Assembly: GCA_002347045.1 (NCBI GenBank) | Contig: DDWV01000001.1 | Coordinates: forward strand, 487,201-551,200 | Source of the DNA: Candidatus Collierbacteria bacterium UBA2277 | Lineage (GTDB): Bacteria; Patescibacteriota; Microgenomatia; UBA1400; MFAQ01 | Reading direction: 5' to 3' | DNA length: 64,000 bases | Shown here: one piece after another, positions 15,332 through 57,154 of the stretch | Layout of the letters: every line of letters begins with the position of its first letter | Numbering within the stretch: the stretch's first letter is position 1 | The notes under the pieces: generated by a model | Seen by the model: only the letters and a program-made list of their open reading frames with translations | Databases searched by the model: none | Told to the model about the DNA's origin: nothing | Translations under genes and position numbers: made by a program

Positions 15332-16087
15332 TTAATCGATTAATGTTCCCTCAACGACTAGTCGTCTAAGAGTCGTTCCCGGAGGAACACAGGTAACAAG
15401 CTTAAAGGTTTTGTTTGAGTAATTTTGCTTTAAGACCCACAGATCTGTTGGCTTAACTTCCACAGTGTTTGTGACTCGGTAGGTATATTCTTTGTCTTTG
15501 TACTTTACAAAAATATCTGAACCTGCTTTAAGTTTTGGAAGAGTGGAAAATATGGTGGTGTATTTTTTGGGGTCAAAGAACTGTGGAAGGGTTGAGTGAC
15601 CAAAGACGACTGGAGAACCATACTGACCCGGGAGGGCAGTCTGCGGATAATGTACTAAGTGTTTTGTGAGGTCTTCATCAAAAAGGCTAGTTACAACATT
15701 TTCTAAGCCAAGAGAGGGTATTGAGAGTGTGTAGGTGTCAGGAATATCTCCTTGGTCTTCTGATCGATCTACAGGGGAAGAAAAGGAATCGTTTTTTACA
15801 CTGCCAGGAAACCAACTACTGGCCTTTGTGTAGTCGACTCCAGACAAAATGAGAGGTTCTTGATCGTCGCTGGCTTTTGATTCGTAATAGACAGGGGATA
15901 GTAGGCCTGAGTCTCTGTTTAGAAACTGGACATCCTTAAACTGATAACTAACCACTGGGTAGGCGATAGCACCGAGAATTCCAAGACCAAGAGCAGAGAC
16001 TAGTGTAGGAACTGTTTTAAGATATATAGGAATACGCCTACCCGGGTGCGGATCTGAAGCCGTAGCCTTTTTGTAACTATAGAGCAT
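15332..16087 (-). CDS. Sortase-family transpeptidase (membrane anchored)
   Basis: 251 aa with an N-terminal TM segment, a VVFGHSTL active-site His region, and an LVTCVPPGTTLRRLVV motif carrying the catalytic TLxTC cysteine. Confidence 0.8.
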   Translation of the reverse strand: MLYSYKKATASDPHPGRRIPIYLKTVPTLVSALGLGILGAIAYPVVSYQFKDVQFLNRDSGLLSPVYYESKASDDQEPLILSGVDYTKASSWFPGSVKNDSFSSPVDRSEDQGDIPDTYTLSIPSLGLENVVTSLFDEDLTKHLVHYPQTALPGQYGSPVVFGHSTLPQFFDPKKYTTIFSTLPKLKAGSDIFVKYKDKEYTYRVTNTVEVKPTDLWVLKQNYSNKTFKLVTCVPPGTTLRRLVVEGTLID

Positions 16088-16088
16088 G

Positions 16089-18272
16089 TTAGTTTGCTAG
16101 CATCTCAAATTTTATTTTTGAGTATGGCAGAAGTTTTGTGAATAAAGGAATAGGAGGATAAATTTTGACGCTCAAATGATCAAACCCCTCAATTGTAGAG
16201 AAGATGGGGCGAATACTTGAAGATGGTTTCCCCTTGATGAAGCTTTTGTATTTTACTTCGTCAATCGTCGGAAAGAGACTGGTTTCGACATTTACTTTTG
16301 CTTGATAGTAGTTACCGGCGATAACTGGTTCTTCGAGGTTAATTGAGGTGTTGCCTTGAAAAATTTCAGACCCAGAAGGAATTTGAGAGGCTAGTTGTTC
16401 TGAGATCAGTTGGAATAAACTATCCTCTGAGTAAACAAGTGTTTCCAGAGAACCCTCGAGATCAAGATTGAGTATAGCTGCCTCTTCACCAACATCTTTG
16501 TCAAACACCTTTTTAGTGAATTTTAGATCTGAAAGTATTAATGATTTGAATCCAGGGTTCTGAGCATTAGTAGATGATTGGGTATCTGACTTGATTTTTT
16601 CACTAGCCAGCTGAAAAAGCTTGTCCTGATCTGCTTTGGAGACTGCCCTTACTGCGCGCGATGTCCCTCCTGAAAAGTCTGAGTCTGATACAGCATAGGC
16701 AACACTCATAGAGTAGTTGTCAACTGAAAAGGTGGAGTTTTTTGGAAGATTGTAGTCTGCTCCAATTTTAACTGCTTTTACCTTGACGCCGGTGGCCTTA
16801 CCATATGTTTCTGTGCCAGCGATGAGGTCAGCACTTTTGGAAGCAATAGTAACTTGGTCTGTGATGGTGTATGAGTATTTACCATTTTCCGATTCGATTA
16901 CGGCTCCTGCTTTAACGGAGATTGAGGAGGTTGATTTGTTGGCAATAGTAATCATACCGGTTGCGTGTTCTCCGACAGTAGCTTCCCCAGTTGTTTCTAT
17001 TTGTTCTCTAGCAACACCAGATATTGTTTTTTTGGTAGCTATCAGCGTGGGAGTGCCTGAGACAGGAATTTCTGAGATAGCAATATCAATTTGTGAGGTA
17101 ATTTTTTGTGGGTTGAAGTAGATGGTGACAATGGCCTCTCCTAAAAACAAATAACCGACAAACCCAAGAACAAAAATTAGCGGAATAATTAATAAATATA
17201 GGTACGGGTACTTAAGGTTAGAAAATTTTGGGAAAGATAGTTTTGGAATTTTTGGAAGTTTTGGAACAGAAAACGACATTTTTGGAGCTGGAGGAGAAAC
17301 TTTTTCTACGGGGATAGAGTCCTCTTCTTGAACAATGGCAAATTCAGGTGAGTCAGAAATCATCGGAGGAAGAGGCTCTGAGATACTTTTTTCGACAGAT
17401 AAGGGAGCTTCTGACTCTTCATAAGAAAAACCAAGCTCATTTATTGATGTAGGAGGTGATTGAGGAACATAAATGTTTGACTCTTCTTGGGGAGAGGAGA
17501 GGGTTTCTTCATTCCTGGTGCTAGTATTTTCACCTGATAGATACTGTACTGCTTCTGAACCGCCTGTAAGAGCAACAGCTTTGATACTAAACTCGATGGG
17601 TAAAACTTCAACCTTGGGCATGTTCTGAAAAGGAAGCCTTTCTTGCCAAGGATGTGAAGTAATTCGTTGCTCTTCTTCTTCTAAGGCTCCACCATTGGTA
17701 AGAATGAATCTTGCCGGAAGTTTTTCTTTTCCAATAACTGTGAGCCCCTCTTCAACGTCTTGGGCAATATCTCCTGATCTAGCTGCTTCTTCTGACGCAG
17801 AAACATCCCCTTTTTCAATTACCGAGACGACGACCTTGGTGTTGTAAATTTCCAATAGAATGGCTGTTGGAGGAATTCCCTCAAGCTTTTTCATGTAGTG
17901 AGCAATTGCAGAGTTTATGGGAACCATGCCGATCGGAGATAGTCCTAACTCTTTGATTAGGTTGCCTAATAGATGAATCTTTGTTGGGTGAATTTTTCCG
18001 TCTTCAATCCAAGAGTCCGGGAGACCAAAAATTACTTTTCTTGGTTCGGAGTCTATCATTTTGACGGCCTGTTCCAGTGAAGCGTCTACTCCGTTGATAA
18101 GTGATTCTTCATCGGCCCAAGATTCGTATGAACCATAGCTAATGACTGAAGGTTCTGTTCCGACTACCTCCCAGAGAGCAGTTTTTATCAAAGACTCATG
18201 AATTTCGATGGCAAGATAATACTCAGGCTCCGTAACTTTTGATTTATTTCCAAATAAATTTACTATGTTCAT
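16089..18272 (-). CDS. Large bitopic membrane protein: a PilM/FtsA-like actin-fold N-domain, one TM helix and a ~350-aa extracytoplasmic domain
   Basis: The 727 aa N-terminus YYLAIEIHESLIKTALWEV resembles the GIDIGS..IK.V.L start of PilM/FtsA ATPases. One hydrophobic helix (YLYLLIIPLIFVLGFVGYLFLG) sits near residue 355. The C-terminal half is Ser/Thr-rich with no recognised domain. Confidence 0.5.
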   Translation of the reverse strand: MNIVNLFGNKSKVTEPEYYLAIEIHESLIKTALWEVVGTEPSVISYGSYESWADEESLINGVDASLEQAVKMIDSEPRKVIFGLPDSWIEDGKIHPTKIHLLGNLIKELGLSPIGMVPINSAIAHYMKKLEGIPPTAILLEIYNTKVVVSVIEKGDVSASEEAARSGDIAQDVEEGLTVIGKEKLPARFILTNGGALEEEEQRITSHPWQERLPFQNMPKVEVLPIEFSIKAVALTGGSEAVQYLSGENTSTRNEETLSSPQEESNIYVPQSPPTSINELGFSYEESEAPLSVEKSISEPLPPMISDSPEFAIVQEEDSIPVEKVSPPAPKMSFSVPKLPKIPKLSFPKFSNLKYPYLYLLIIPLIFVLGFVGYLFLGEAIVTIYFNPQKITSQIDIAISEIPVSGTPTLIATKKTISGVAREQIETTGEATVGEHATGMITIANKSTSSISVKAGAVIESENGKYSYTITDQVTIASKSADLIAGTETYGKATGVKVKAVKIGADYNLPKNSTFSVDNYSMSVAYAVSDSDFSGGTSRAVRAVSKADQDKLFQLASEKIKSDTQSSTNAQNPGFKSLILSDLKFTKKVFDKDVGEEAAILNLDLEGSLETLVYSEDSLFQLISEQLASQIPSGSEIFQGNTSINLEEPVIAGNYYQAKVNVETSLFPTIDEVKYKSFIKGKPSSSIRPIFSTIEGFDHLSVKIYPPIPLFTKLLPYSKIKFEMLAN

Positions 18273-37574: not shown

Positions 37575-38966
37575 ATGGCTACCAAAAAAGAAATGATAAA
37601 GAGTGTTTTGCCTGTTTTTTTTGGCTTACTAGTGATTGTAATGGTGGTGGTTGCGATACCAACGGCGATAAAATTAACAAGTAAGGCTTCTGGGGAACCA
37701 GCTAATCTTGTTTTTAATTATGAAGGAGTTTTGGGGAAGGTCCCAACACCTTGGAGAAACTTGGCACAAGGAGGAGAGGAGCCAAAAGATATGCTTTCGG
37801 GAATAGTCCCAGAAATAAGAGCGCTAAGGCCTGAGTACATACGAATTGACCATATATATGATGCCTTCAATGTAGTTTCCGGAAGTAGCGGAAACCTATC
37901 ATTTGACTGGAGTGGTCTGGATAAGGCGGTCGACTCTATATTGGCAACGGGAGCAAAACCATTTTTATCACTTTCGTATATGCCTTCAGTGATTGCCAAG
38001 GGTGACATAGTGTCTCGACCGAACAACTGGAATGACTGGGGGGTTGTAGTTAGTGAGACTATAAAGCACTATAGCGGAGTAAAAGAACGGAATATCAATA
38101 ATGTAATTTATGAAGTTTGGAATGAGCCAGACCTGTTTGGAAGTTATAAAACATATGGAGACAAAAACTATCTTGATATGTACTTGGTGTCAGCAAGAGC
38201 AGCGGCAAGAGTGAGCGGAGTGAATTCTTTTGAGATAGGCGGACCGGCAACGACGGCTTTGTATCAAAACTGGCTTGAGCGCCTTATTAAGTATGTTGAC
38301 CAGAATAATTTAAGGATGGATTTTGTGAGCTGGCATAGATACACAACGGATTTAGAGCAATTTGAAAAAGATGTGGCTCAGGCAAGGTCTTGGGCAGAGA
38401 ATATTCCGGCACTGATTAACTTGAAGTACTACGTGACAGAGTGGGGCTTTGATAGTGAAAACAATAAAGGCTATGACGAAAGATTCGGAGCGATACACAC
38501 GATAGCGGCATCAAGAACGATGATGGGAGCAATCGATAAAGCATTTGTTTTTGAGATAAAAGATGGACCTGGAGCAGAAAAATACTGGGGTAGATGGGGT
38601 TTGCTAACCAATGAAAAGTATGGAGTACCAGAAAAAAAGCCAAGATATAAAGCTTTAGAGTTTTTGAATACTTTAGGACCACACAGGATGAGCGTATCGG
38701 GAGAAGGGTCTTGGGTAAAAAGCATAGCTTCAGCAGATGACAATGGAGACTTAAAAATACTAGTGGTAAATTATGATCCAAAAGGAGTTCATGTTGAGTC
38801 TGTACCAATGACATTCGAGAACTTGCCAAGTGGAAATTTTAAGATTACAAGGCAGGACTTTATGGGAGGAAGCAGAGTTGTAAATGTGGCAACAACAAGC
38901 GCGGTGTGGAAAACAAATGAATACTTTAGTGCAAACTCGGCAGCGATGTTTACGGTGAATTTTTGA
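37575..38966 (+). CDS. Membrane-anchored clan GH-A glycoside hydrolase (GH39/GH5-like TIM barrel)
   Basis: 463 aa with an N-terminal TM anchor. The acid/base motif is EVWNEPDL and the nucleophile motif is YYVTEWGF, the two catalytic-Glu signatures of GH39-type retaining glycosidases. Confidence 0.6.
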   Translation: MATKKEMIKSVLPVFFGLLVIVMVVVAIPTAIKLTSKASGEPANLVFNYEGVLGKVPTPWRNLAQGGEEPKDMLSGIVPEIRALRPEYIRIDHIYDAFNVVSGSSGNLSFDWSGLDKAVDSILATGAKPFLSLSYMPSVIAKGDIVSRPNNWNDWGVVVSETIKHYSGVKERNINNVIYEVWNEPDLFGSYKTYGDKNYLDMYLVSARAAARVSGVNSFEIGGPATTALYQNWLERLIKYVDQNNLRMDFVSWHRYTTDLEQFEKDVAQARSWAENIPALINLKYYVTEWGFDSENNKGYDERFGAIHTIAASRTMMGAIDKAFVFEIKDGPGAEKYWGRWGLLTNEKYGVPEKKPRYKALEFLNTLGPHRMSVSGEGSWVKSIASADDNGDLKILVVNYDPKGVHVESVPMTFENLPSGNFKITRQDFMGGSRVVNVATTSAVWKTNEYFSANSAAMFTVNF

Positions 38967-40772: not shown

Positions 40773-42419
40773 TTAACTAACATTAGGATCTTCGATGACT
40801 TCATCGGCGTCTCCCAAAACTTTACGCCAGTTGCCAAGCTTACCAAAAAGACTGGTAACGTCGGCAAATTGCTTAACCTTGAGAAGATAAGCTAGCCAGA
40901 AGTATACAGCAAGACCGATAAAACTTGCGGTCGCTGTAAGAATTAGAAGGGGAACTGTTCGGGTGGTATCAAAAACAAATTGATCAAGTAGACGCATTGG
41001 AATCCAGAGAGAAAATGCTGTAAGGATACTGACAAAAAATATTTTTAGCATTTCTCTTGTGATGCCTAGGTTGGGAAGACGAGAACGAATGACAAGATAT
41101 AGTACTAAAAAGTTTATGGTGTTTGATGCACTCATGGCAAGACTCATACCAAGGACGCCCCAGTCGAGTGTTTTGGTAAAGAAATATGAAGAAGCAACAA
41201 ATATAACAAGAGTGAAAAGATTAATAAGTAGGGGTGTTCTAGTGTCTTTTTTGGCATAAAAAGCACGAGTAAGGAGTTGAACGGCAGCTTGGGGAACAAT
41301 AGAGAAGGAGAAGATAGCGAGAGCTTTTCCAGTGAGCAAAGTTGCTTCCCAGGGGAAATTTCTGGCACCAAAGATGATACGAACAATGGGAACTCTTAGA
41401 ATTAGGATCAAAATCGCTGCCGGAAAACAAAAGAAGAACATCTGGAGAGTGGTTTTTCCGAGAGTAATGGCAAATTTTGTTTGATCTTTACTGTCGGCTT
41501 CCTCAGCTAAAGTGGGAAATGAAGCCTGTCCAAGTGAGACGCCAAAAAGAGATATAGGGAGGACGTACACTTGACGGGCAAAATTGAAGACTGTAAACGA
41601 CCCTGCTGATAGAGCTGAGGCAAGATTTAGAGAAACAATTCTCTCTACTTGAACTAAAGCAAGCGAAATAGTTCTTGGAGGCATTAGTTGAAGCATGTTG
41701 ATAACCCCTTTGTGCTTTGGACTGAAGCTAAATTTGGGACAAAAACCCGCTTGATAAGCTGATGGAAGCTGAATAATAACGTGAAGAAAAGCTCCAAAAA
41801 TTACACCAATGGCAGCGGCGTAGATGCCAAGAGATGGAGTAAGCAAGAGAATACCAAGAATTGTGCCGAGGTTGTAAAAAAGTGGCGCGATGGCAGGCAC
41901 TAAAAAACGACGGTGTGCTTGAAGCACCCCTGTAAGAAACGAGGAAAAAGTAAAGATAATCTGGGCGACAGACATAATTCTAATCAGATTGACCATAAGG
42001 TCGAGCTGTTCGCCAGAGTAGTGTGAGATAAGTTTGGACAGCGGACGGGCAAAGATGATAATTAAAGCCGTAAATAAAAATAGTATTAGCGAAACCGAGG
42101 TTAGTGCTACGTTGGCCATGCGATTGGCTTTTTTGGAGGACTTTTTTAGATACTCCTGATATATGGGAATGAAGGCGGCCGAGACGGCGCCAACTACAAG
42201 AAGCTGAAAAACGGTATCGGGAATAATGAAAGCAGAAAAATAAATGTCGAGATTCCCTTCGAGACCACCAAAAAATCTAGCGGCCAAAAGACGATTCCTG
42301 ATAAGCCCTAGAAGGGCAGATAACAGGAACGATGCAGCAATGATGGTAGCAGCCGAGAGAATACTTGAACTTTTACGATTTAAGATCTCTTGTGACTTTG
42401 TTATTAATTTTTGAACCAC
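40773..42419 (-). CDS. murJ: Lipid II flippase MurJ/MviN
   Basis: 548 aa, polytopic with about 14 TM helices, and a conserved MurJ N-terminal region (LLGLIRNRLLAARFFGGLEGNLDIYFSAFIIPD). Confidence 0.85.
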   Translation of the reverse strand: MVQKLITKSQEILNRKSSSILSAATIIAASFLLSALLGLIRNRLLAARFFGGLEGNLDIYFSAFIIPDTVFQLLVVGAVSAAFIPIYQEYLKKSSKKANRMANVALTSVSLILFLFTALIIIFARPLSKLISHYSGEQLDLMVNLIRIMSVAQIIFTFSSFLTGVLQAHRRFLVPAIAPLFYNLGTILGILLLTPSLGIYAAAIGVIFGAFLHVIIQLPSAYQAGFCPKFSFSPKHKGVINMLQLMPPRTISLALVQVERIVSLNLASALSAGSFTVFNFARQVYVLPISLFGVSLGQASFPTLAEEADSKDQTKFAITLGKTTLQMFFFCFPAAILILILRVPIVRIIFGARNFPWEATLLTGKALAIFSFSIVPQAAVQLLTRAFYAKKDTRTPLLINLFTLVIFVASSYFFTKTLDWGVLGMSLAMSASNTINFLVLYLVIRSRLPNLGITREMLKIFFVSILTAFSLWIPMRLLDQFVFDTTRTVPLLILTATASFIGLAVYFWLAYLLKVKQFADVTSLFGKLGNWRKVLGDADEVIEDPNVS

Positions 42420-42481
42420 TGAAGTGATTTTAATTCAAGAGAGTGACTTGCGCTAGGTGTAGCTCGTGGTAAAATTAGCGC

Positions 42482-42724
42482 ATGCCAATAACAAAGTCAG
42501 CAATAAAGAAACAAAGATCGGATAAAAAGAAGGCCGGTTTTAACAAATCAACAAAAACTAAAGCAAAAACCGCGATCGATGCTTTTAAGTTGTCACTCTC
42601 AAAAGAGAGCTTGATGAAAGCTTTTTCAATGGTAGATAAAGCTGCCAAAAAAGGTGTGATAAAAAAAGGTAAGGCAAACAGAATCAAATCTCGTTTGTCA
42701 AAAAAAGTTTCTTCCAAAGCGTAA
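42482..42724 (+). CDS. rpsT: 30S ribosomal protein S20
   Basis: 80 aa, basic and all-helical. MPITKSAIKKQRSDKKKAGFNKSTKTKAKTAIDAF matches the S20 N-terminus. Confidence 0.85.
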   Translation: MPITKSAIKKQRSDKKKAGFNKSTKTKAKTAIDAFKLSLSKESLMKAFSMVDKAAKKGVIKKGKANRIKSRLSKKVSSKA

Positions 42725-42746
42725 GTATTTTTGATACACTGAAAGT

Positions 42747-43292
42747 GTGGCTACTAAGCAAGGTGTTTCTAGTATAAATTTATTACCTAAAGATAGTTTT
42801 GAGTTCTCTACGACAGGGAAGCTTTTAAAGTGGATAACAACAGCGGGACGAGTTTTGGTAGTTTTAACTGAGTTTGTAGTTCTCTTGGCCTTTGGTTCAA
42901 GATTTTATTTTGATAAGAAGCTTGACGATCTTGGAGAGGTGATAGTTCAGAAACAAGCTCAGGTTATGACTTACTCCGAGATAGAGACAGATATTCGAAA
43001 GATTTTGGCAAAACAACGACAAGTTGAGATATACGAAAAATCTGGTTTGGGTTTCTCAGAAAAAATAAACAGTTTAACTAATATCCTACCGGCAGGAACT
43101 TCTCTGGACAGCTTTAATCTGAACAATGGATTGCTAGTAATAGAAGGAAAGGCTCAGTCGGAGTATGGATTTGCTCAGTTTTTAACCGGGATAAAAAAAA
43201 TGCCTGGAGTAGCAATGATAAACATGAAAGACACAAACTTTGATCAGACAACTGGTGGAGTGAAGTTTAATATTCAAATTAGCTATAAATAA
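42747..43292 (+). CDS. PilN-like type IV pilus assembly protein
   Basis: 181 aa with an N-terminal INLLPKD motif, the hallmark PilN INLLP, followed by a TM helix and a periplasmic domain. Confidence 0.6.
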   Translation: MATKQGVSSINLLPKDSFEFSTTGKLLKWITTAGRVLVVLTEFVVLLAFGSRFYFDKKLDDLGEVIVQKQAQVMTYSEIETDIRKILAKQRQVEIYEKSGLGFSEKINSLTNILPAGTSLDSFNLNNGLLVIEGKAQSEYGFAQFLTGIKKMPGVAMINMKDTNFDQTTGGVKFNIQISYK

Positions 43293-43954
43293 TGGCCAAC
43301 TTATTAAGCAACGAAAAATACGCGCTTTACTATCAGAAGATTGGACTTTTGTATAAAAAGCCTGAGATTCGAGCTTCTTTGGAGGTTATATTGTCGGTTT
43401 TTACCGTGATTGTACTAGTGTTTGCGGCTATCAGACCAACGCTAATAAATATTACGTCTTTGCAGAAAAAAATTACCGACCAGGAAGCAGTCAACAAAAA
43501 ATTGGATAATAAAATGGCCCAGCTGATAAATGCCCAGACACAGCTTGAGGTAAACAGGGATAGTCTATATCTATATGATAGTGCAGTACCGGATGGTTTT
43601 TCTTATGGAGATAGCGCAAAAAGAGTTGAGTATTTGGCAAGAAGAAATAATCTGCAAATTGAGTCTCTGACTTTTTCGGGGGTAACTTTGCAAGATGGTG
43701 GAAAGGTAAACGGAGACTGGCTATCTAAGATTAGCGTCCCTTCCACTGACAGCATAATTCAAAACAAAGTGACTTTTACGATAAAGGGAAACCCTGAAGG
43801 CACAATCAATTTTTTGAAACAAATTGAGTCTATGGATCAGCTGGCTATCCTGGGCAGTGCTTCGCTAACAAAGCAAGTTGGCCAGTCGAGACAAAACGAT
43901 TCTTTGAGAGCATCTGGAACACTGACCTTTTATTTTTACTCAACAAGACAATGA
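43292..43954 (+). CDS. PilO-like inner-membrane pilus assembly protein
   Basis: 220 aa with a short cytoplasmic N-terminus, a TM helix, a coiled coil (QKKITDQEAVNKKLDNKMAQLINAQTQLE) and a periplasmic domain. Its start codon overlaps the stop codon of pilN. Confidence 0.45.
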   Translation: MANLLSNEKYALYYQKIGLLYKKPEIRASLEVILSVFTVIVLVFAAIRPTLINITSLQKKITDQEAVNKKLDNKMAQLINAQTQLEVNRDSLYLYDSAVPDGFSYGDSAKRVEYLARRNNLQIESLTFSGVTLQDGGKVNGDWLSKISVPSTDSIIQNKVTFTIKGNPEGTINFLKQIESMDQLAILGSASLTKQVGQSRQNDSLRASGTLTFYFYSTRQ

Positions 43955-44265
43955 AACCACAAAGAACAATATCTTCTTATGTCTTGTTGGTAGGAATCAT
44001 GGGATTGTCTATAATGGGTGGAGTAGTGGCTTATCAGATTTATTCTGCGGCAGTAAAAAGTCAAGTAACCATGGAACAGAGTGCTGCGATTAAACCTATT
44101 GATGGACAGATAGATACTACTGTTATTGAGAGCCTTAGAAATAGGACTGTTATAAATGAGTCAGAGATGCAACAATTATTGACAGAGGTGCTAGAGTCGG
44201 AGCCAGTTGTGGCGACGGAGTCTAGTGCTGTTGAGGCTACAGCTTCAGCAACTATAGAGCCATAA
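43951..44265 (+). CDS. Small bitopic membrane protein with an acidic Ala/Thr-rich C-terminus
   Basis: 104 aa with an N-terminal TM helix. It is translationally coupled to both flanking genes through 4-nt and 1-nt overlaps. Confidence 0.35.
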   Translation: MKPQRTISSYVLLVGIMGLSIMGGVVAYQIYSAAVKSQVTMEQSAAIKPIDGQIDTTVIESLRNRTVINESEMQQLLTEVLESEPVVATESSAVEATASATIEP

Positions 44266-45608
44266 TGAAAAAACAAGGCCTAATGGCCAAGAAAATACCA
44301 ACGGTTTTTGGAATACTGATTCTTTTAGGCGGTCTTGTGGCTGGTGTGATTTTGGTAAACAACCGACAAGGGCTAATCACAAAAGCTGGGCCTACTGAGT
44401 CTCCTAAAAATGTAAAGATTTCTAATCTTGGATCGAACTCTTTTACCGTGAGCTGGACTACCGACACTCCCGTGACTGGTTACTTGAAGTACTCAGAAAA
44501 TCCAGCAAAAATTACCTCACCGGCAGGAGATATCCGTGACCAGATATCTGGAACATCCCAAGGATACACAAACCACTACATAACGGTGACGGGTTTGAGC
44601 CCTGAGAAGACGGTGTATTTTATGATTGGATCCGGATCCCAGATGTATGACGATAATGGAAACCCTTTTGAAGTACGGACAACTAATCAGGTAATAGCAC
44701 CTCCGGAAAATGTGATAACCGGAAAAATTGTTGGAGCAGACGGTACTCCAATAAACGGAGCGATAGTGTATGTAGAAGTTGAGGGCGGTAAAACACTGTC
44801 AGCAATGACGAATACTACTGGAGCTTGGAGACTAAACTTGGCTTCTTCGCGAGACAGTAAAGGGGCGGTGCTTACATATGACGCAAACACTTCACTTGTG
44901 TCCATCTTTGTGCAAGCAGGTATCTCTGGAACAGCAACAGCGGTAACAAATACTAGTAAAACTAAACCTGTGCCAGATATCACCTTGGGAAAAAATCAAA
45001 GTTTTGTAGATTCTACGATCACATCTGAGAGCGCATCTAGTGCCGTGGCTGCAGGAAAAAGCGGAAGTTTCGAAAGCATTGCTGAAGAAGCTGCTCCAGT
45101 AGGAGGTATTGCAGCTACTGAGTCTGGGTCTATGATTGTAATGAATCCTGCTATCAATGGCGAGATTATTGCTACTAGTACTCCTGAGTTTCGAGGTAAA
45201 ACCGCCCCTGGAATTACTATAAAGATCTCTGTTCACTCGCCGATTGAGCTTACACAAGTAATCAAATCGGATAAGAATGGGGACTGGACCTGGACGCCTC
45301 CACAAAAACTAGATCCTGGCTTGCACACGCTAACACTTGAGTTTACTGACGAGAATAACGTTTTCCAGAAAATTGTAAGGACATTTACTGTTTTGGCAGC
45401 TGAGGATACTTTGGGGATGCCTGCTTTTGTAGCTACTCCTTCGTCTGAGATAGCAACTCCATCCGCAATCCCGACTGAAAGCATGCCAGCAACGGTGTCG
45501 AGTGAGTTGGCCGATGCGGGTGGTTTTTCAACGACAATTCTCCTCGGAGTTGCAGGTATTATAATGCTGATATTTGGCAAGGTGTACAAAAACAAGTGGA
45601 AAGATTGA
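44265..45608 (+). CDS. Cell-surface protein with FN3-like and carboxypeptidase-regulatory-like beta-sandwich domains and a C-terminal sorting-signal-like anchor
   Basis: 447 aa with an N-terminal signal/TM segment, NSFTVSWTTDTPVTGYLKYS (FN3-like), and GKIVGADGTPINGAIVYVEV (CarbopepD_reg-like). The C-terminus reads LADAG, then a 19-residue hydrophobic stretch, then KVYKNKWKD. Confidence 0.55.
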   Translation: MKKQGLMAKKIPTVFGILILLGGLVAGVILVNNRQGLITKAGPTESPKNVKISNLGSNSFTVSWTTDTPVTGYLKYSENPAKITSPAGDIRDQISGTSQGYTNHYITVTGLSPEKTVYFMIGSGSQMYDDNGNPFEVRTTNQVIAPPENVITGKIVGADGTPINGAIVYVEVEGGKTLSAMTNTTGAWRLNLASSRDSKGAVLTYDANTSLVSIFVQAGISGTATAVTNTSKTKPVPDITLGKNQSFVDSTITSESASSAVAAGKSGSFESIAEEAAPVGGIAATESGSMIVMNPAINGEIIATSTPEFRGKTAPGITIKISVHSPIELTQVIKSDKNGDWTWTPPQKLDPGLHTLTLEFTDENNVFQKIVRTFTVLAAEDTLGMPAFVATPSSEIATPSAIPTESMPATVSSELADAGGFSTTILLGVAGIIMLIFGKVYKNKWKD

Positions 45609-45674: not shown

Positions 45675-47450
45675 ATGGACGACCAAAATCAAACCAATCA
45701 ATCGTTAGGTCAGAGTACTGTGCCAACAAATGATCCACAGTTTCCTCCAATAGAGTCAGTAGTCTTAAATCAACCCGAAGATATTACACCGTCGGCCACT
45801 CTGCCTCAAAATCCTGCGTTTCCAGAGATGGCGAGTACTGAGCCCGTCACCATGAATGAGTCTTTAGTAACTGAACCTGTGCCGTCTGGACAAGGAAGTG
45901 TTGATTCTATTTCTGAGATGACGCCAGGAACCACTGATGTTTCAACGCCATCTTTACAGACTCCTCCCGTGACAATGGAGTCAAGCGAACCTGCAGAGCC
46001 ACCAATGCCAGAGGCTAAGAAAAAAAGTAAGGTTTTTCCAATAATCGGTGGAGTTGCGGCACTGCTTCTTGTGGTAGGTGTGGCGGGTGCGGCTTACTAT
46101 GTATCAAATCAGCTTTCTACCAGACAAGCAGTGGCGCCTACGGCACCAGAGAGTGAGCCACAGGCGTATGTACTTGAAGGAGGTGGGTCGGGGCAAGTTA
46201 CCATCAAACCGCCGGCGGGAACAACAATTAACATCGTAAGACCGGTGGCTACTGACGATGATGAACCAGCGCCAAAAAAGACACCGACACCAACAAAAGC
46301 GCCAACTCCTAGAAATATACCTGAGGGTACGGGAACTGATGGTTTATACGTGGGAGTTACCTTCAATCCGGGTGATACTGTTTCAGTAGGTGGAACTGTT
46401 TATAAAAAAGATGCTCCTCTGAAAGTTAACGATAAAGGTGTGCTTGAATGTGCGGAAGAAGGATATTATTTATGTACCATTGCTGGAAGCAACGAGTGTT
46501 GCAAGATTGGGAGTCAAACAACTACTGCTGCGATTGGAGGAGATGGGGGAACTTCAGGGGGAAGTACCAGCACAAACTGCATAACTTGGAATGGTTATAT
46601 AGCCAATCCAACACAAGAACAGGAAAGGCAAGTAATATGTAATCCAAATAAAGATAAGTTTAATACGGTTACTTTTTCAGAAGCTTGCGTGGCAAGAGTT
46701 TACTACAACACAGATATTGCAGGCTCTGTAATAGCACTAACAAAAGACGGAGTGGCAACTCCCATGACAAGAATTGACGATAAAAAATGGGACGTAAATG
46801 TAACTCCCGGCACTTATACTATTACTGCTAAACTGGGAAATGAAGACAAAAATGCTATGGGATTTAGGGTACCTAATAGTTCTGGGATTTGTCAGATGTT
46901 TGGAGCTCCATATAATGTAAGTTCATTTTTGCAAGCTTCAACGTTGAAAGCTTTGGGGATAGACTCTGTCACTCAGGTAGATCGCCCTGTGCAGTGCTGG
47001 GGTGACATGATCAAGGGGGCAGACGGGAATACCCGAGGCGAGCTGAACTCTAATTATGACTTTAATGATTTTAGTGTTGTAATTGGTTGCAAGGACGCGG
47101 AGACATCTGTACCAGGTTACTGCGCATTGCTAAGAATCTATAAAAAAGTAAATGGTGTGTATAGTCCGACCCATATGACGACTGCTGATCTTCAAAATAT
47201 GGTGGTTGGGGATACGTACAGACTTACGGTGACAAACAACTTAGAGCTTCTCCCGACTCGTTTTAGAGTGACGATTTCTGGAGTAGTTGGTGGTTGGATG
47301 GATGGTACCTTTAACGCAACAAACAAAAAAATCGTAGAGTACAACGACTTGGTGATTACCTCTCCTGGAACGTATAAGTTTGAAGCTCAGGTTGTGCCAA
47401 TTCCAATGACTGGTGTGAATCAAAAGACAATTGAATATACTGGACAATAA
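45675..47450 (+). CDS. Type-II membrane protein with a disordered Pro/Thr/Glu-rich cytoplasmic N-tail and a Cys-rich extracytoplasmic domain
   Basis: 591 aa with a ~118-aa low-complexity N-tail, KKKSK plus a TM helix, a conserved QLSTRQAVAPTAPESEPQ motif, and about 14 Cys in the ectodomain. Confidence 0.5.
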   Translation: MDDQNQTNQSLGQSTVPTNDPQFPPIESVVLNQPEDITPSATLPQNPAFPEMASTEPVTMNESLVTEPVPSGQGSVDSISEMTPGTTDVSTPSLQTPPVTMESSEPAEPPMPEAKKKSKVFPIIGGVAALLLVVGVAGAAYYVSNQLSTRQAVAPTAPESEPQAYVLEGGGSGQVTIKPPAGTTINIVRPVATDDDEPAPKKTPTPTKAPTPRNIPEGTGTDGLYVGVTFNPGDTVSVGGTVYKKDAPLKVNDKGVLECAEEGYYLCTIAGSNECCKIGSQTTTAAIGGDGGTSGGSTSTNCITWNGYIANPTQEQERQVICNPNKDKFNTVTFSEACVARVYYNTDIAGSVIALTKDGVATPMTRIDDKKWDVNVTPGTYTITAKLGNEDKNAMGFRVPNSSGICQMFGAPYNVSSFLQASTLKALGIDSVTQVDRPVQCWGDMIKGADGNTRGELNSNYDFNDFSVVIGCKDAETSVPGYCALLRIYKKVNGVYSPTHMTTADLQNMVVGDTYRLTVTNNLELLPTRFRVTISGVVGGWMDGTFNATNKKIVEYNDLVITSPGTYKFEAQVVPIPMTGVNQKTIEYTGQ

Positions 47451-47460
47451 CTGAAATAAA

Positions 47461-48129
47461 ATGAAAAATAAAAATAAAAAAATACTCGCAATAATTTTAA
47501 TTTTAGTTATTTTAATATTAGGAGGAGCATCTATTTATATTGCAACACAGCTCTCGACAAGAGAGACTGTAGCTCCAACAGCTCCTGAAAGTAAACCAGC
47601 CGCCTCAGAACCAGATAGCCTTTGGGAAGGATCTGACGCTTGTGTGGTGGATGCCGTGGCTAAAGAGGGGTGTTCGTATAAATATTATTGTCTTACAGAT
47701 TCGTATACTTGTGTGGCCACGAATGGGCTGTATACAAAAACAACCCCTTATACATGGTGTGATGGACCGATCGCTCCACCTCCAACATGTGAAGAAAATT
47801 TGAAAACATACGATACAGGACCCAACACTGGAATGTGTTATGCAACACAAGATAGTTGTGATGCTGCCTGCATAAAACCAGTAATTACTAAAGCACCTAC
47901 CGAAGCCCCGACAGCGGCTCCGACTGCAGTTCCTACAATTATTGTAACTGTAGCACCAACGGCAGCCCCAACTGTGATCGTAACAGCAGCGACAGCAGTG
48001 CCAACGACAGTAGTAACAGTAGCCGCACCAACTGCTTTGCCTGAAGCAGGTATTTTTGATCTTCCAGGAATTGCTGCTTTTGCCGGAGGACTTATACTGG
48101 CTGTGGTTGGAATTCTACTAGCGCTGTAG
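47461..48129 (+). CDS. Small Cys-rich surface protein with an N-terminal TM anchor, a PT/VT-repeat linker and a C-terminal LPEAG-plus-hydrophobic tail
   Basis: 222 aa with an N-terminal TM helix, then QLSTRETVAPTAPESKPA, paralogous to the 45675 gene. It has 10 Cys in about 80 aa and an (A/V)PT repeat linker. The C-terminus is ALPEAGIFDLPGIAAFAGGLILAVVGILLAL. Confidence 0.5.
   Translation: MKNKNKKILAIILILVILILGGASIYIATQLSTRETVAPTAPESKPAASEPDSLWEGSDACVVDAVAKEGCSYKYYCLTDSYTCVATNGLYTKTTPYTWCDGPIAPPPTCEENLKTYDTGPNTGMCYATQDSCDAACIKPVITKAPTEAPTAAPTAVPTIIVTVAPTAAPTVIVTAATAVPTTVVTVAAPTALPEAGIFDLPGIAAFAGGLILAVVGILLAL
47890..48040 (+). repeat. Imperfect short tandem repeats encoding an Ala/Pro/Thr/Val-rich linker
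   Basis: Reiterated ccaac[gt]g..gc.gc / gtaac.gtagc units encode APTEAPTAAPTAVPTIIVTVAPTAAPTVIVTAATAVPTTVVTVAAPTA. Confidence 0.6.
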
Positions 48130-48131
48130 AC

Positions 48132-49382
48132 ATGAAGATAGCCATAATTGGAGGTGGCTTTACCGGTCTTAGTTGTGCATATTCCCTATTGGAGCGAAAA
48201 ATTGACGTAGCTTTGTTTGAGAACGATGAGTGTTTGGGGGGATTGGCAGGCGGGTTTCGACAGGCTGATTGGAAATGGGACCTGGAGTTTTTTTATCATC
48301 ATATTTTTACAAACGACAGAGATATTATGAGGTTGGCAGAGAAATCTGACTGGAAAGTGAAAATTTCTAGTCCTTTGACAACTAGCTTTGTAAACGGAGT
48401 AGAGACACAACTTGACTCACCGTCGTCTTTGATGCGGTTTAACAAGATGAGTATTGGGGGAAGATTGAGGATGGGAGCTGGACTGGCTGTGTTGAAGTTT
48501 ATCCCCGATGGGTTATTTTTAGAAAAGTATTTGGTAGTGAAGTTTTTACCTAAGCTAATTGGAGAGGAAGGATACAAACTTGTATGGGAAAAACTTTTGA
48601 AAGCAAAGTTTGGACCTTTTTATGACAGAGTAAACATGGCATGGTTCTGGACTCGAGTAGCAAAACGAACAAAAAAATTGGGCTATTTTGACGGAGGATT
48701 TGTGAAGCTAGCGGAAATGATCGGAGAAAAGATCGAGAGAATGGGAGGGCGCCTAAACATGAATACTAATATAGAAAAGATTGAGGCGATCGGAGAAAAG
48801 TGGAGTGTAGATGGGCAGATATTTGATGGGGTAGTGATTACGAATCCTGCCCCAGTTGCAAAAAAAATGCTGGGGGGTATAAAGATTGATTTACATAAAA
48901 TTGATTATCTTTGGGGGCAAACTTTGATAATAGAACTTGAGAAAAAACTTATTAAGGGATACTGGATGAATATTTTAGAGAATGACTGGCCGTTTTTGGT
49001 GGCCGTGGAACACACAAATATGATTGACAAGTCCAGATACGGAAACAAAGAAATACTATATCTGGGAAATTACCTTGCGGATAATAATAGTCAGCTGAGT
49101 ATGAGTAAGAATGAGATAATCAAGCTTTATACACCTTTTCTTAAAAAAATTAATCCTAGATTTGAAAGGAAATGGATAAAAGACAGTAGTCTATTTCGAA
49201 AACCATTTGCCCAACCAGTGTTTCCTGTTAATTATTCAGACCAGTTATTAAAGCCAAAAACGAAGTATAAGGGGCTCTATTTTGCGAACATGAGCATGGT
49301 GTACCCATTTGATCGTGGAACAAACTACGCAGTTAGAATGGGAGAAGATGTAGCTAAACAGATACAATTAGATTTAGAATAA
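48132..49382 (+). CDS. FAD-dependent oxidoreductase, UDP-galactopyranose mutase-like or amine-oxidase-like
   Basis: A Rossmann N-terminus IAIIGGGFTGL, a GGLAGGF motif, and YHHIFTNDRDIM, which resembles the Glf motif HIFHTNDKYIW. At 416 aa it is close to the UGM-family length. Confidence 0.5.
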   Translation: MKIAIIGGGFTGLSCAYSLLERKIDVALFENDECLGGLAGGFRQADWKWDLEFFYHHIFTNDRDIMRLAEKSDWKVKISSPLTTSFVNGVETQLDSPSSLMRFNKMSIGGRLRMGAGLAVLKFIPDGLFLEKYLVVKFLPKLIGEEGYKLVWEKLLKAKFGPFYDRVNMAWFWTRVAKRTKKLGYFDGGFVKLAEMIGEKIERMGGRLNMNTNIEKIEAIGEKWSVDGQIFDGVVITNPAPVAKKMLGGIKIDLHKIDYLWGQTLIIELEKKLIKGYWMNILENDWPFLVAVEHTNMIDKSRYGNKEILYLGNYLADNNSQLSMSKNEIIKLYTPFLKKINPRFERKWIKDSSLFRKPFAQPVFPVNYSDQLLKPKTKYKGLYFANMSMVYPFDRGTNYAVRMGEDVAKQIQLDLE

Positions 49383-49389
49383 AATATCT

Positions 49390-51354
49390 ATGTTTTTTAC
49401 TGACCTATCAATTGTTTTTAGAACCTACTTGATAAGCTTAGTAATTCAACTGCTAACTTGGCCAGTAACTAAGAAAATTTTTGGAAAATTACCTGATGGA
49501 GGTTGGGCCTTGGGAAGAGTGTTTACAAGCTTGTTTGCGGCCGTGGTTATATGGCAGTTGAGCTATCTAGGTCTTTCTTCGAACAACAGTAGTAGCATAT
49601 TTGCTTTGATGACTGTTTTTGGACTAGCTGGACTTTGGCAACTGTATGTCGACGGAGTCAAAAAATATGCGGTTACTCGTTCTATGGCAAAGATTATTGC
49701 CATTGAAGAATATCTTTTTTTAATAGGACTCGGATTAACTGCAATTATTCGTGGACATGCTCCAGAGTTAAACTCACTGGAGAAGTTTATGGATTTTGGA
49801 TTTGTAAAACAGTACTTAGTGTCTCCTTCTCTTCCGGCGATGGATATGTGGCAAGCAGGAAAAAGTATCAACTATTACTCCTTTGGTCATTTTTGGACTA
49901 GCACTTTAATCCGTATCTGGGGAGTTGAGCCGAGTGTGGGATACAACTTGATGTTGGCTTTTATTTTTGGAACATCGATGAGTCTAGTATTTATTTTGTG
50001 CTATACACTGATGGGCAAAAAAAGCTCGCGAGCCTTAACTTTTGGGAGTTTGATAGGGTCAATGTCGGTAATGATAGCCGGAAACAGCCATACCATTTGG
50101 TATCTATTGAAAAACAAGGGCCTGCTAGACTACTGGTATGCAGACGCAACACGATTTATTGCTTTCACAATTCATGAGTTCCCAAGCTATAGTTTTGTGG
50201 TCTCTGATCTTCATGGCCATGTACTTGATTTACCGGTAGTTTTGTCTTTTTTGGTTCTTTTGGTCTTGTGGTTTAGTGAGAGAAAGAAAATTTATGAGGT
50301 ACTTATGGGAGTGTTGTTTGGAGTAATGATGATGACAAACACTTGGGATGTAGCAATTTTTGGATTGGTATTGGTAGTAATGGCGGTGTTAATGCTGTTT
50401 GAGAATCCCAGAGAGATTAAGGCCTTACTATCAATGGCCATGACAATGATAGTGACCGTGTTTTTGGTGACAATGCCATGGTGGTTGTCTTTCCATGCCA
50501 TATCAGATGGAATAGGACTTGTAAAAGAGAGGTCTCCTTTTTGGCAACTTCTTGTGTTGTGGAGCGGAGGAGTAGTAATAAGCGTTTTAGGTTTTGTGAT
50601 GGGAAAGGGTGAAAAAAATAAACTTTTGATTAGAACACTGGCACTTTGCTCAGTTTTCCTAATTGCGATACCTGAGTTTGTTTACGCGAGGGACATTTAC
50701 CCAGACTATCCAAGAGCCAATACTATGTTTAAGCTAACTTACCAGTCGTTTGTAATGATAGGCGTGTTAGCTGGATTTGCTTGGGGAAAGTTGCTGGATA
50801 AAGATAAAAAAATGTTTGTGGGGATGCGGATTTTAGGACTGTTTGTTTTGCTATATATATTTGTAGGGACGATGATTTTTCCGGTTAAAGCATTCCCCTC
50901 TTACTACAAATCATTTGCTAATTATAAAGGACTTAGTGGAGAAAAATGGATGGTAGATACAATGCCCGAATATTATCATGCAGCAAAATATCTAGACAAA
51001 AATCGAGACGGGAAGAATTTGGTAGAAGCTGTGGGAAACAGTTATACCCTATTTAACGCAGTGTCAGTGTTTTCCGGCGTACCGACAGTTCAAGGATGGA
51101 GAGTGCATGAGTGGTTGTGGCGAGGGGGGTACGACACAGTGCTTGAAAGACAAGATGATGTAATTGAAATATACCAAGGTCAAAGCGTAGAGAAGGCGCA
51201 AAAATTAATTAAGAAATATAATGTTGGCTGGATATTGGTTGGACAAAATGAGACTGTTTCTTACAAAATTAATGAGGAAAAGCTGTGGCAAATTGGTGAA
51301 AAAGTCTGGCAAGATGGCAATACTTATATAATAAAAGTAGAACTACCCTACTGA
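49390..51354 (+). CDS. DUF2298-like polytopic membrane protein (putative GT-C-fold glycosyltransferase)
   Basis: 654 aa with at least 12 TM helices in the N-terminal 500 aa and a soluble C-terminal domain. The architecture is typical of DUF2298 / ArnT-PMT-like proteins common in CPR and archaea. Confidence 0.5.
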   Translation: MFFTDLSIVFRTYLISLVIQLLTWPVTKKIFGKLPDGGWALGRVFTSLFAAVVIWQLSYLGLSSNNSSSIFALMTVFGLAGLWQLYVDGVKKYAVTRSMAKIIAIEEYLFLIGLGLTAIIRGHAPELNSLEKFMDFGFVKQYLVSPSLPAMDMWQAGKSINYYSFGHFWTSTLIRIWGVEPSVGYNLMLAFIFGTSMSLVFILCYTLMGKKSSRALTFGSLIGSMSVMIAGNSHTIWYLLKNKGLLDYWYADATRFIAFTIHEFPSYSFVVSDLHGHVLDLPVVLSFLVLLVLWFSERKKIYEVLMGVLFGVMMMTNTWDVAIFGLVLVVMAVLMLFENPREIKALLSMAMTMIVTVFLVTMPWWLSFHAISDGIGLVKERSPFWQLLVLWSGGVVISVLGFVMGKGEKNKLLIRTLALCSVFLIAIPEFVYARDIYPDYPRANTMFKLTYQSFVMIGVLAGFAWGKLLDKDKKMFVGMRILGLFVLLYIFVGTMIFPVKAFPSYYKSFANYKGLSGEKWMVDTMPEYYHAAKYLDKNRDGKNLVEAVGNSYTLFNAVSVFSGVPTVQGWRVHEWLWRGGYDTVLERQDDVIEIYQGQSVEKAQKLIKKYNVGWILVGQNETVSYKINEEKLWQIGEKVWQDGNTYIIKVELPY

Positions 51355-52418
51355 GAACCATTGAGACGGTTGCTCAAATACTTCTTTAAGGCGTCCCAAC
51401 TATTATCTTTGGGGATAAGCACCCACTCACCTTTATATTTATATGTGGGAGGATTGTATAGTATCGCAACCCCGTTTTCGTCTGGGAGAGTGGAAAGAGT
51501 GATTGATCTCATCTGACTGTTTTGAGTGTCTAGAGCTATTTTGGCCAGAGTTGGATATAGACTCTGACTAAGGTTGGTATCGAGATTTTTGTCCAAAATT
51601 GTAAAAAACTGGTCAAGCTTTTCTTTGTTGAGGAGAAAAGCTGGTGTAAGCATTTTTTGTTTTAGAGCCGAGATAATTTGTTGTTGTCTGCGGGACCTGG
51701 CAAAGTCAGTACCTTCATCTCCTATTGAGTGACGCGATCTAACAAACTTTAGGGCAGTGTCACCGTTCATGTGAGCTGACCCTGTAGCAAAAACAAGTGT
51801 TTCGTATCGGCTAGACACAGGTATAGCGTTTTCTTTGCCTGGAAGAGGAAAATTTGGATCGACAAATCCAGGATTAACGTCTATATCCACCCCTCCTATG
51901 AGGTCGATAGTTTCTTTAAAAATAGTGAAGTTTATGACTGCAGTGTAATGAATGGGAAGACCTAAGTCTTCTAAAATTGCACCTTGAGCCATTTTTATGC
52001 CACCCCCTGGGCTGGCCTTTTCTCCGTAGTGATAAGCAGTATTAATTTTGGCTTGGAGTGAAGGAACCCAAAGGTCTCGAGGAATACTTATCAAAGCTGG
52101 AGTTTTTGAGTTGTGATTGTAAGAAAGAACAATAACTGTGTCTGAAAGATTTGGAGAGTCTGTACCTTCGCCACGTATACCGAGTAATAAAAAGTTTGTG
52201 GTGCCACTAGTGTTGTCGAGATTCTCAACGGGAGTGCCAAAAAAACTAAGAAGGTCTTGAGGCTTTAAATTGAGGCCAGAGAGTATCTCGAGTCCCTTTG
52301 CACCTGCAATTCCTAATATACTGAGAAAAAACAAAACGAGAATGGCCACAAGATGAGTTTTTATGAATGCGGCAGTACGAATAAAAAGACGGCGTGGTCT
52401 GATGTGACTTATTTTCAT
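51348..52418 (-). CDS. LytR-CpsA-Psr (LCP) family cell-wall glycopolymer ligase
   Basis: 356 aa with an N-terminal TM helix and the LCP core motif NFLLLGIRGEG...DTVIVLSYN...ALISIPRDLWV. Its 3' end overlaps DUF2298 convergently by 7 nt. Confidence 0.8.
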   Translation of the reverse strand: MKISHIRPRRLFIRTAAFIKTHLVAILVLFFLSILGIAGAKGLEILSGLNLKPQDLLSFFGTPVENLDNTSGTTNFLLLGIRGEGTDSPNLSDTVIVLSYNHNSKTPALISIPRDLWVPSLQAKINTAYHYGEKASPGGGIKMAQGAILEDLGLPIHYTAVINFTIFKETIDLIGGVDIDVNPGFVDPNFPLPGKENAIPVSSRYETLVFATGSAHMNGDTALKFVRSRHSIGDEGTDFARSRRQQQIISALKQKMLTPAFLLNKEKLDQFFTILDKNLDTNLSQSLYPTLAKIALDTQNSQMRSITLSTLPDENGVAILYNPPTYKYKGEWVLIPKDNSWDALKKYLSNRLNGSQ

Positions 52419-56333: not shown

Positions 56334-57154
56334 TGGAAGATATACGACAAGACCCTGCATGGGGCGGACATCTAAAGCATAAGGGGTGGAAGATAGACTG
56401 GGTAAAGTCGTCTGATGGCCGACATAAAATACAGGTTTCTATTCTACGGCTTGGATGGTGGCCATTTTCGATGATGAAGATACAAAGGTCAAACTTTGAT
56501 CCAGACTTTAATGATTTAAAGAGATTAAAAAGAAAATACTGGGTAGCTAACTCAATAATTGAGCCAATTCGGGTTCAAAATATGGAGTCTTTTCGAAAGG
56601 CTGGATATCATCTAACCAGATTCCCATACTTAGCGATGAGTTCTTATGTTAATGACCTTAGTAAGAGCGAAAAAGAACTTTGGAGTGGCTTGTCTGACAA
56701 TGCCAAGAGACTGATAAAGAAGAATGCTAACGCAAAAATAATTGAGATTAGTCCAGATAAGTTTTGTGAGTTATGGAAAAAATCTAGCAAAATTTGGATA
56801 ATGAAGGTAGATGAGGTTGCTAATTTACAAAAATCTTTTAAAGGTAAAGTTCGACTGGTAGTAAGTAAGGTTGGATATGAGTACCACTCTGGACTGATGG
56901 TAATTTATTCAAAAGATACGGCTAATTATTATCAGACATGGACAAGTGAGGCAGGAAGAAAATCGGGGGTTCACTACAAACTTGTGTGGGAGGAAATGAA
57001 AAAGGCTAAGCAAATGGGAATGAAATACTTTGACTTTGAGGGAATTTTTGACCCTCGTTGGCCACAAAAAAAATGGATTGGTTTTACTGACTTTAAAAGA
57101 CGTTTCGGCGGAGAGCTGGTTCGTTTCCCTGGTGGATTTTTTCGTTGGCTATAG
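56333..57154 (+). CDS. Second FemAB-family aminoacyltransferase
   Basis: About 273 aa from MEDIRQDPAWGGH, a paralog of the upstream gene. Its ATG overlaps the upstream TGA (TGATG). Confidence 0.62.
   Translation: MEDIRQDPAWGGHLKHKGWKIDWVKSSDGRHKIQVSILRLGWWPFSMMKIQRSNFDPDFNDLKRLKRKYWVANSIIEPIRVQNMESFRKAGYHLTRFPYLAMSSYVNDLSKSEKELWSGLSDNAKRLIKKNANAKIIEISPDKFCELWKKSSKIWIMKVDEVANLQKSFKGKVRLVVSKVGYEYHSGLMVIYSKDTANYYQTWTSEAGRKSGVHYKLVWEEMKKAKQMGMKYFDFEGIFDPRWPQKKWIGFTDFKRRFGGELVRFPGGFFRWL

Follow-up and report, generated by a model that had tools for sequence, protein, structure and literature searches.

PilN and PilO family genes held in a conserved four-gene cassette, apart from other pilus genes, in Candidatus Collierbacteria and related lineages

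Gene organization of the locus

The DNA analysed here, referred to throughout as the window, is a 64,000 nt stretch from Candidatus Collierbacteria bacterium UBA2277 (GCA_002347045.1, contig DDWV01000001.1, positions 487,201 to 551,200), and its subject is a pair of genes within it, pilN and pilO, together with the genes that accompany them. Candidatus Collierbacteria, a lineage of the Microgenomates within the Candidate Phyla Radiation (CPR), are also the nearest named relatives of the window proteins. Five consecutive open reading frames (ORFs) occupy the plus strand at the locus: rpsT, pilN, pilO and two genes here termed g3 and g4 (Table 1). The last four form a fixed, deeply conserved cassette in the neighbourhood of lepA, rpsT and murJ.

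The original prediction had placed a PilN/PilO-like pair 22 nt downstream of rpsT, and both the coordinates and the gap are confirmed by the ORF calls. A terminator scan of the 22 nt gap found no terminator-like hairpin, and rpsT is probably the first gene of the pilN transcript in the Collierbacteria lineage. The reading frames of the cassette overlap by 1 nt at the pilN/pilO junction, by 4 nt at pilO/g3 and by 1 nt at g3/g4; the third, small transmembrane protein had thus been rightly described as translationally coupled through overlaps of 1-4 nt.

Table 1. Coordinates of the cassette and of other features of the window, with the basis of each assignment
Feature	Position	Strand	Basis or comment
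rpsT (ribosomal protein S20)	42482..42724	+	Pfam Ribosomal_S20p, E 8.8e-13
rpsT-pilN spacer, 22 nt	42725..42746	+	Sequence read and terminator scan
pilN, 181 aa, GTG start	42747..43292	+	PF05137
pilO, 220 aa	43292..43954	+	Homologues matching PF04350 and predicted fold
g3, 104 aa, single-pass membrane protein	43951..44265	+	Alignments; gene position between pilO and g4
g4, 447 aa, fn3/Ig-like surface protein	44265..45608	+	Pfam matches; orthologues in related loci
murJ (lipid II flippase)	40773..42419	-	Homologue in L001/L002 matches PF03023 MurJ; divergent from rpsT here
g5 and g6, paralogous variable surface proteins	45675..48129	+	Copy number and order differ between loci
Sortase	15332..16087	-	Pfam Sortase E 2.7e-22; NCBIfam sortase_fam 56.8 bits against a cut-off of 39.35
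16089 protein, 727-aa membrane protein with N-terminal FtsA/PilM-like actin-fold domain	16089..18272	-	

Family assignment of PilN and PilO

The product of pilN matches Pfam family PF05137 with 29.6 bits against a curated cut-off of 22.8 (E = 7.3e-7; residues 108-178). Its N-terminus reads MATKQGVSSINLLPKD, with SSINLLPKD at residues 8-16, and is followed by a hydrophobic helix at about residues 33-52. The predicted layout runs from a cytoplasmic INLLP motif (residues 10-14) through this membrane helix and a coiled-coil stretch to the C-terminal PilN domain. The gene had been predicted to open with the INLLPKD signature of PilN followed by a transmembrane helix; the match above cut-off bears this out, and the gene is, as judged from its sequence, a genuine member of the PilN family. 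An exact-match look-up of the protein found no record. When 1.84 billion cluster representatives were searched with a profile, 1978 members of the PilN family were found at E<=1e-3. The 150 best of these are about 170-210 aa long and match over nearly their full length, bar a few truncated entries.

The INLLP-type peptide of PilN is the site bound by PilM in solved structures (PDB 2ych, 5eou). Residues N11, L12 and P14 are invariant in an alignment of 27 Collierbacteria-type sequences (A2), and the equivalent positions are nearly invariant in PilN relatives of about 30 % identity. Of the 101 distinct PilN proteins from the related loci, 95 have the strict motif, as do 104 of 145 representatives of distant clusters; near variants occur in most of the others. 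The cytoplasmic part of PilN is only about 30 residues long, and conservation of INLLP on so short a tail argues that a PilM-type partner persists and is encoded elsewhere.

The window PilO protein has no Pfam PilO match of its own, even at E<=10. Among its homologues (21-65 % identity), 37 of 43 match PF04350 at E<=0.01, the best with E = 1.3e-9. An AlphaFold2 model of the window protein, with a predicted local distance difference test score (pLDDT) of 79.6, places a membrane/coiled-coil helix at residues 24-87, followed by an alpha-beta domain. The top Foldseek matches of this model are PilO of Myxococcus xanthus (3jc8 chain O, E = 1.9e-7) and PilO of Pseudomonas aeruginosa (2rjz and 5uvr); the match to 2rjz has E = 3.9e-4 and a template modelling (TM) score of 0.63 on the target, and that to 5uvr a TM score of 0.70 on the target. 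The model thus combines, like solved PilO, a membrane helix, a coiled coil and a predicted C-terminal alpha-beta domain of ferredoxin-like type. These homologue matches and this fold support the PilO-like topology originally proposed for the 43292 gene, which is assigned by them to the PilO family. A DivIC identity was also considered and was rejected; the match was weak (E = 0.016, below cut-off) and is ascribed to the coiled coil.

Type II secretion proteins fit the pair less well. PilN of the window, unlike GspL, has no fused cytoplasmic actin-like domain of the GspL type, and for the window PilO the PilO matches are stronger than those to GspM, of which PulM (5hl8) appears at rank 15 with E = 1.6e-2. 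Some of the homologues have already been named 'Tfp pilus assembly protein PilN/PilO' by annotators of the Joint Genome Institute (JGI). Filing of the two genes as PilN and PilO family members therefore draws on Pfam, homologue, fold and annotation evidence alike.

Conservation of the cassette across related loci

Related loci were collected in two scans. A genome scan, with one genome per species, yielded 36 loci, nearly all from Collierbacteria; a metagenome scan, for which the query was a narrower PilN alignment with some relatives of about 30 % identity, yielded 80 further loci. At all 36 genome loci lepA and murJ on the minus strand are followed by rpsT-pilN-pilO-g3-g4 on the plus strand, and this order is shared by the locus L038, the PilN of which is only 30 % identical to that of the window. 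A g4 orthologue lies downstream of pilN at every locus long enough to show it (28 of 28 genome loci and 42 of 42 metagenome loci). Likewise, pilO follows pilN in each of the 61 metagenome loci of sufficient length, and nearly all sufficiently long metagenome loci encode a g3-like small membrane protein between pilO and g4. The junctions within the cassette are overlapping or very short in the distant loci as well. Recurrence of this gene order at all related loci that were examined puts the arrangement beyond chance. The pair had been called orphan in the original prediction; its detachment from pilus genes holds, but it is not an oddity, being part of a conserved cassette in all of these loci.

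The surroundings of the cassette are less constant. Of the metagenome loci, 68 show a gene upstream of pilN; in 64 of them this immediate neighbour is murJ, on the strand of pilN and about 11-120 nt away, and rpsT and lepA lie just beyond murJ on the opposite strand. Comparison of positions 40773-42724 of the window with loci L041-L118 shows an inversion of the rpsT-murJ pair relative to the distant lineages; it is shared by Collierbacteria, their close kin and also L038 and L106, and through it rpsT adjoins pilN in the window. A position directly downstream of rpsT is therefore a property of the pair in Collierbacteria and close kin, but not in distant lineages. An 80-aa antisense ORF (42475-42717, minus strand) fully overlaps rpsT and is almost certainly spurious; in 23 related loci an antisense ORF over rpsT was mispicked by a simple longest-ORF gene caller.

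Gene content downstream of g4 varies between loci, and g5 and g6, which are absent from distant loci, are not conserved members of the cassette. The flanking genes lepA, rpsT, murJ, hrcA and GH39 are also syntenic across related loci. This general stability of the region would be expected if pilN and pilO were ordinary pilus genes, the linkage of which to g3, g4, murJ and rpsT were an inherited gene order of small, rearrangement-poor genomes with no functional meaning, and if g4 were a simple surface adhesin; the lack of a match of g3 and g4 to any pilus family would be explained in the same way. Such an explanation is nevertheless judged quite improbable. Past g4 synteny is soon lost, and rpsT and murJ have undergone an inversion; the unit pilN-pilO-g3-g4, by contrast, persists intact down to 30 % PilN identity. 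Because the cassette keeps its overlapping or short junctions while its flanks rearrange, selection on the four-gene unit is the easier explanation.

PilN and PilO are already known families in the CPR. In the published literature searched, no description was found of a detached four-gene cassette that includes a protein with a sortase signal and is tied to murJ/rpsT, and the detached, fixed cassette with g3 and g4 is apparently new.

The g3 and g4 proteins and the surface context

In g3, a single membrane helix follows a short N-terminal part and precedes a conserved extracellular motif of about 45 residues; the chain closes with a low-complexity tail. Collierbacteria carry this motif as IKPxDGxI...L..R, the distant set as PLNPxID...EL..FPIY. 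Searches of Pfam, NCBIfam and PDB profiles gave nothing above noise for g3, and no lipobox was found.

The g4 protein begins with a membrane or signal helix that bears a conserved K[RQ]IPT, continues with beta-sandwich domains (fn3-like, CarboxypepD_reg and Big_13) and contains a Pro/Thr linker; a comparison with PDB sequences gave only generic fn3/Ig matches (E>0.07). Its C-terminus in the window consists of a degenerate LADAGG, a hydrophobic helix and a KNKWKD tail, laid out like a sortase-type sorting signal. Distant g4 orthologues carry [LIV]P[VK]SG (LPVSG, IPVSG, LPKSG) near the C-terminus, or LPSTG at L038, ahead of a hydrophobic helix and a charged tail, and in Collierbacteria the sorting motif has drifted to L[TE][DE][AT]G. 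The sorting-motif pattern used is matched by 37 of 77 g4 orthologues. The g4 protein is a candidate sortase substrate, and the sortase encoded in the window, 27 kb away, is the enzyme expected to process signals of the g4/g6 type. Sortases are reported to be nearly universal in Microgenomates (PMC6744442). L038 (9941-12814) presents the reverse of the Collierbacteria condition: there the PilN motif is degraded and g4 has a textbook sorting motif, whereas in Collierbacteria INLLP is intact and the sorting motif degenerate.

The cassette had been described as feeding into a string of surface-protein genes. As conserved partners, g3 and g4 fit that description, but the later genes vary between loci. 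Additionally, a motif just after the N-terminal membrane helix is common to g4 (KAGPTESP), g5 (RQAVAPTAPESEP) and g6 (RETVAPTAPESKP) and may be a shared processing site. The g6 protein terminates in LPEAG and a membrane helix, and g5 lacks an anchor at its C-terminus. A link between the cassette and the newly described CPR Pam pilus is conceivable, since that pilus also uses Ig-like and FnIII proteins with C-terminal helices; by its description, however, the Pam pilus differs in operon context, with ATP synthase genes and chaperone-like PamC/D (bioRxiv 10.64898/2026.03.03.709456).

Pilus genes in and around the window

The locus was read within the 64-kb window and the 10-kb flanks of the matched loci. 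Among the 43 window ORFs of 150 aa or more, 41 were scanned with Pfam or NCBIfam models; the other two are 6338-10045, which adjoins rpoB and is RNA polymerase beta' (rpoC) by an identical annotated contig, and 4092-4646 (184 aa), which is nested in a helicase ORF. None of the 41 scanned ORFs encodes pilM, pilB/T, pilC, pilD or a secretin, and no prepilin leader motif was found in a six-frame scan of the window. The earlier statement that the window contains no ATPase, platform protein, prepilin, pilM, pilP or pilQ is confirmed by these ORF and six-frame scans. Just past the window ends, where the left side reaches EF-Tu/S10 and the right side RmuC/MetRS/TatD, there are likewise no pilins, PilD, PilB or PilC. 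At this locus pilN is not adjacent to pilM, and the pilus core genes are presumably present in this genome. Given that no pilus genes lie near the cassette, it is family membership and the INLLP motif, not context, that connect it to a pilus machine.

It had further been suggested that a PilM-like function is supplied in trans, possibly by the 16089 protein. The N-terminal cytoplasmic domain of this protein is indeed structurally closest to FtsA and PilM, and its gene is coupled to the sortase gene. Its other features do not agree with PilM. The protein matches neither PilM nor any other family model in Pfam or NCBIfam, and its first phosphate-binding motif is EIHES, versus DxGxx. The actin-like domain is about 100 residues shorter than PilM/FtsA and its secondary-structure order fits two bare lobes; from these two features, the peripheral subdomain that helps to form the peptide groove of PilM is probably missing. 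After this domain the chain runs through a Pro-rich linker and a membrane helix into an extracellular part of about 350 residues. A PilM-PilN fusion was considered and rejected, as the extracellular part is not PilN-like (hhalign probability 0.1). Homologues number 15 relatives, all from Collierbacteria, versus the very broad PilN family. The 16089 protein therefore lacks the family match, the soluble cytoplasmic form and the PilN-like distribution of a PilM, and probably also the four-subdomain fold with a groove. It is not taken as an established partner of the cassette but regarded as a case of its own, linked to the sortase gene. Recurrent minus-strand genes for proteins of 650-950 aa beyond g4 in distant loci were considered as 16089 equivalents and rejected. 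They have no similarity to 16089; by their N-terminal sequences only, they resemble assorted membrane/envelope proteins and ribonucleotide reductase.

Possible function of the cassette

Host attachment and DNA uptake in the CPR are believed to depend centrally on type IV pili. The reading favoured here, with a confidence slightly above even, is that the pair is the type IV pilus PilN/PilO alignment pair of the organism, encoded apart from the pilus core, and that g3 and g4 are lineage-specific cell-wall partners of it. PilN and PilO would form the membrane heterodimer of the 'alignment' subcomplex of the pilus machine, and their genes would be kept away from those for the rest of the machine, in conserved surroundings of housekeeping and envelope genes (lepA, rpsT, murJ). 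The cytoplasmic INLLP motif of PilN may dock a PilM whose gene lies at another site, the main pilus locus being the likeliest, while PilN and PilO would pair outside the membrane through their coiled coils and alpha-beta domains. The small single-pass g3 protein would stand in the gene position of PilP, and g4, as a beta-sandwich protein with a sorting signal, in that of PilQ. Their position and co-conservation raise the possibility that, in a cell lacking an outer membrane, g3 and g4 connect the machine with the peptidoglycan wall.

The closest parallel is the PilM-PilN-PilO-PilP subcomplex of type IVa pili, as in P. aeruginosa, M. xanthus and Thermus thermophilus. There too, PilN has the INLLP motif, one helix and a C-terminal PilN domain, PilO has a helix, a coiled coil and an alpha-beta domain (the structures best matched by the window PilO belong to this system), and the two genes are adjacent and translationally coupled in the order pilN-pilO. 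Unlike the type IVa operon, the cassette has no pilM upstream, and downstream of pilO the canonical PilP lipoprotein and PilQ secretin are replaced in position by the unrelated g3, which is not a lipoprotein, and g4, which is not a secretin. The cassette also sits among housekeeping and envelope genes and not among pilus genes.

Families of PilN, PilO, PilM, PilB/T and PilC are widespread in the CPR, in which PilQ has not been found (PMC6744442). Membership in one phylum-level group, widespread PilN/PilO, the lack of an outer membrane and the lack of PilQ are shared between the cassette and the pili of CPR bacteria described for Nanosynbacter lyticus TM7x (loci 1 and 2; PMC11623550) and by Meheust et al. 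2019 (PMC6744442). In TM7x, however, pilM-pilN-pilO lie inside pilus loci with pilB and pilC (PMC11623550), whereas the pair of the cassette is detached from these and fixed to g3, g4 and murJ/rpsT. The closest described genome is that of Ca. Chazhemtobacterium aquaticus Ch65, of a sibling lineage of Collierbacteria, for which a single pilus locus with PilA, minor pilins, PilD, PilB, PilT, PilC and PilM is reported and PilN/PilO are not listed (PMC7143001). By its published description, this pilus locus fits a pair that is encoded elsewhere.

Several observations weigh against assignment of the pair to a pilus. Within 10 kb, no called gene at the 118 loci has a prepilin leader or a Walker motif of the PilB/PilT type, and no PilM, PilC or PilD was seen; the upstream neighbour on the same strand is rpsT or murJ and not a gene of PilM size. 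In the most distant orthologue, that of L038, the PilN motif is degraded to VNLYRG. Homology of g3 and g4 to PilP and PilQ was not detected, so that their assignment to the machine comes from gene position and co-conservation alone. As Saccharibacteria pilus loci include their own pilM-N-O, separate encoding of pilN and pilO is not general in the CPR, and a second, canonical set could exist in this genome too (PMC11623550). Finally, the neighbours of the cassette are envelope genes, namely murJ and, in some loci, genes for proteins that resemble penicillin-binding proteins (PBPs) or O-antigen ligases by their N-terminal sequences only. Such constant envelope-gene neighbours would fit a non-pilus role in the envelope equally well.

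One such role would be that of a repurposed, pilus-independent PilNO scaffold, which together with g3 would hold, export or position g4 and possibly the downstream surface proteins, or would couple to MurJ-dependent wall synthesis, with INLLP docking another actin-like protein such as the domain of 16089. The cassette is never found beside pilus genes in the 118 loci, it is constantly accompanied by g3 and g4 and nearly always by murJ, and the PBP- or O-antigen-ligase-like genes lie just past g4 in some distant loci. The window also encodes, coupled to its sortase gene, a membrane protein with a cytoplasmic domain that is structurally closest to FtsA and PilM. In Clostridium perfringens, moreover, a PilM/N/O-dependent machinery helps to move the surface/matrix protein BsaC through a Gram-positive-type wall (PMC11580942). 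This precedent still needs the whole pilus machine, and, unlike in the cassette, the genes for its cargo do not lie in one unit with pilN/pilO (PMC11580942). There is no known case of a PilN/PilO pair acting independently of a pilus-type ATPase and platform. In addition, the PilN family as a whole retains the PilM-binding motif while homologues of 16089 are found only in Collierbacteria; the model of 16089 is a bare two-lobe core that would leave no room for the groove subdomain of PilM, and its extracellular part does not resemble PilN. A scaffold of this kind is consequently considered somewhat unlikely, although it would, if independent of pili, provide the first case of a PilN/PilO pair that serves something other than a filament.

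It is also conceivable, if unlikely, that PilN, PilO, g3 and g4 together build a secretin-less collar or anchor that spans the wall, its genes lying next to murJ because it is installed during wall synthesis; in a variant, a pilus-free PilNO scaffold of the envelope would be docked by an actin-like protein other than PilM. If a collar of this kind is present, the cassette would take over, in CPR cells without an outer membrane, the part that PilP and PilQ play in Gram-negative bacteria.

Under the favoured reading, in which the pair serves a type IV pilus, g3 and g4 become two concrete candidates for the missing outer part of the pilus machine in secretin-less cells. For annotation, inventories of pilus genes in this group that consider a single locus would miss PilN and PilO, and the 'hypothetical' labels on the pilN and pilO genes of the cassette can be replaced.

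Other features of the window

The window has a low GC content of about 41 % and is rich in housekeeping genes, which include rpoB, EF-G, S7, alaS, ftsK, RNase J, PNPase, IF-2, nusA, dnaJ/K, hrcA, lepA, murJ, tpiA and helicases. GC skew is positive over nearly the whole of 1-64000, with a cumulative value of +3.2. An unusual disparity of G and C on one strand has been reported for Collierbacteria and the sibling lineage Ch65, with which the positive skew of the window agrees (PMC7143001).

The window is additionally rich in envelope genes (13640-14623, 37575-38966, 48132-52418 and 55314-57154). These encode a YceG/MltG-like protein, a GH39 protein, an amine-oxidase-like flavoprotein followed by a DUF2298 membrane protein, a LytR-CpsA-Psr protein and two adjacent FemAB-like proteins. 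Together they are consistent with a peptidoglycan wall with interpeptide bridges that are used by the sortase.

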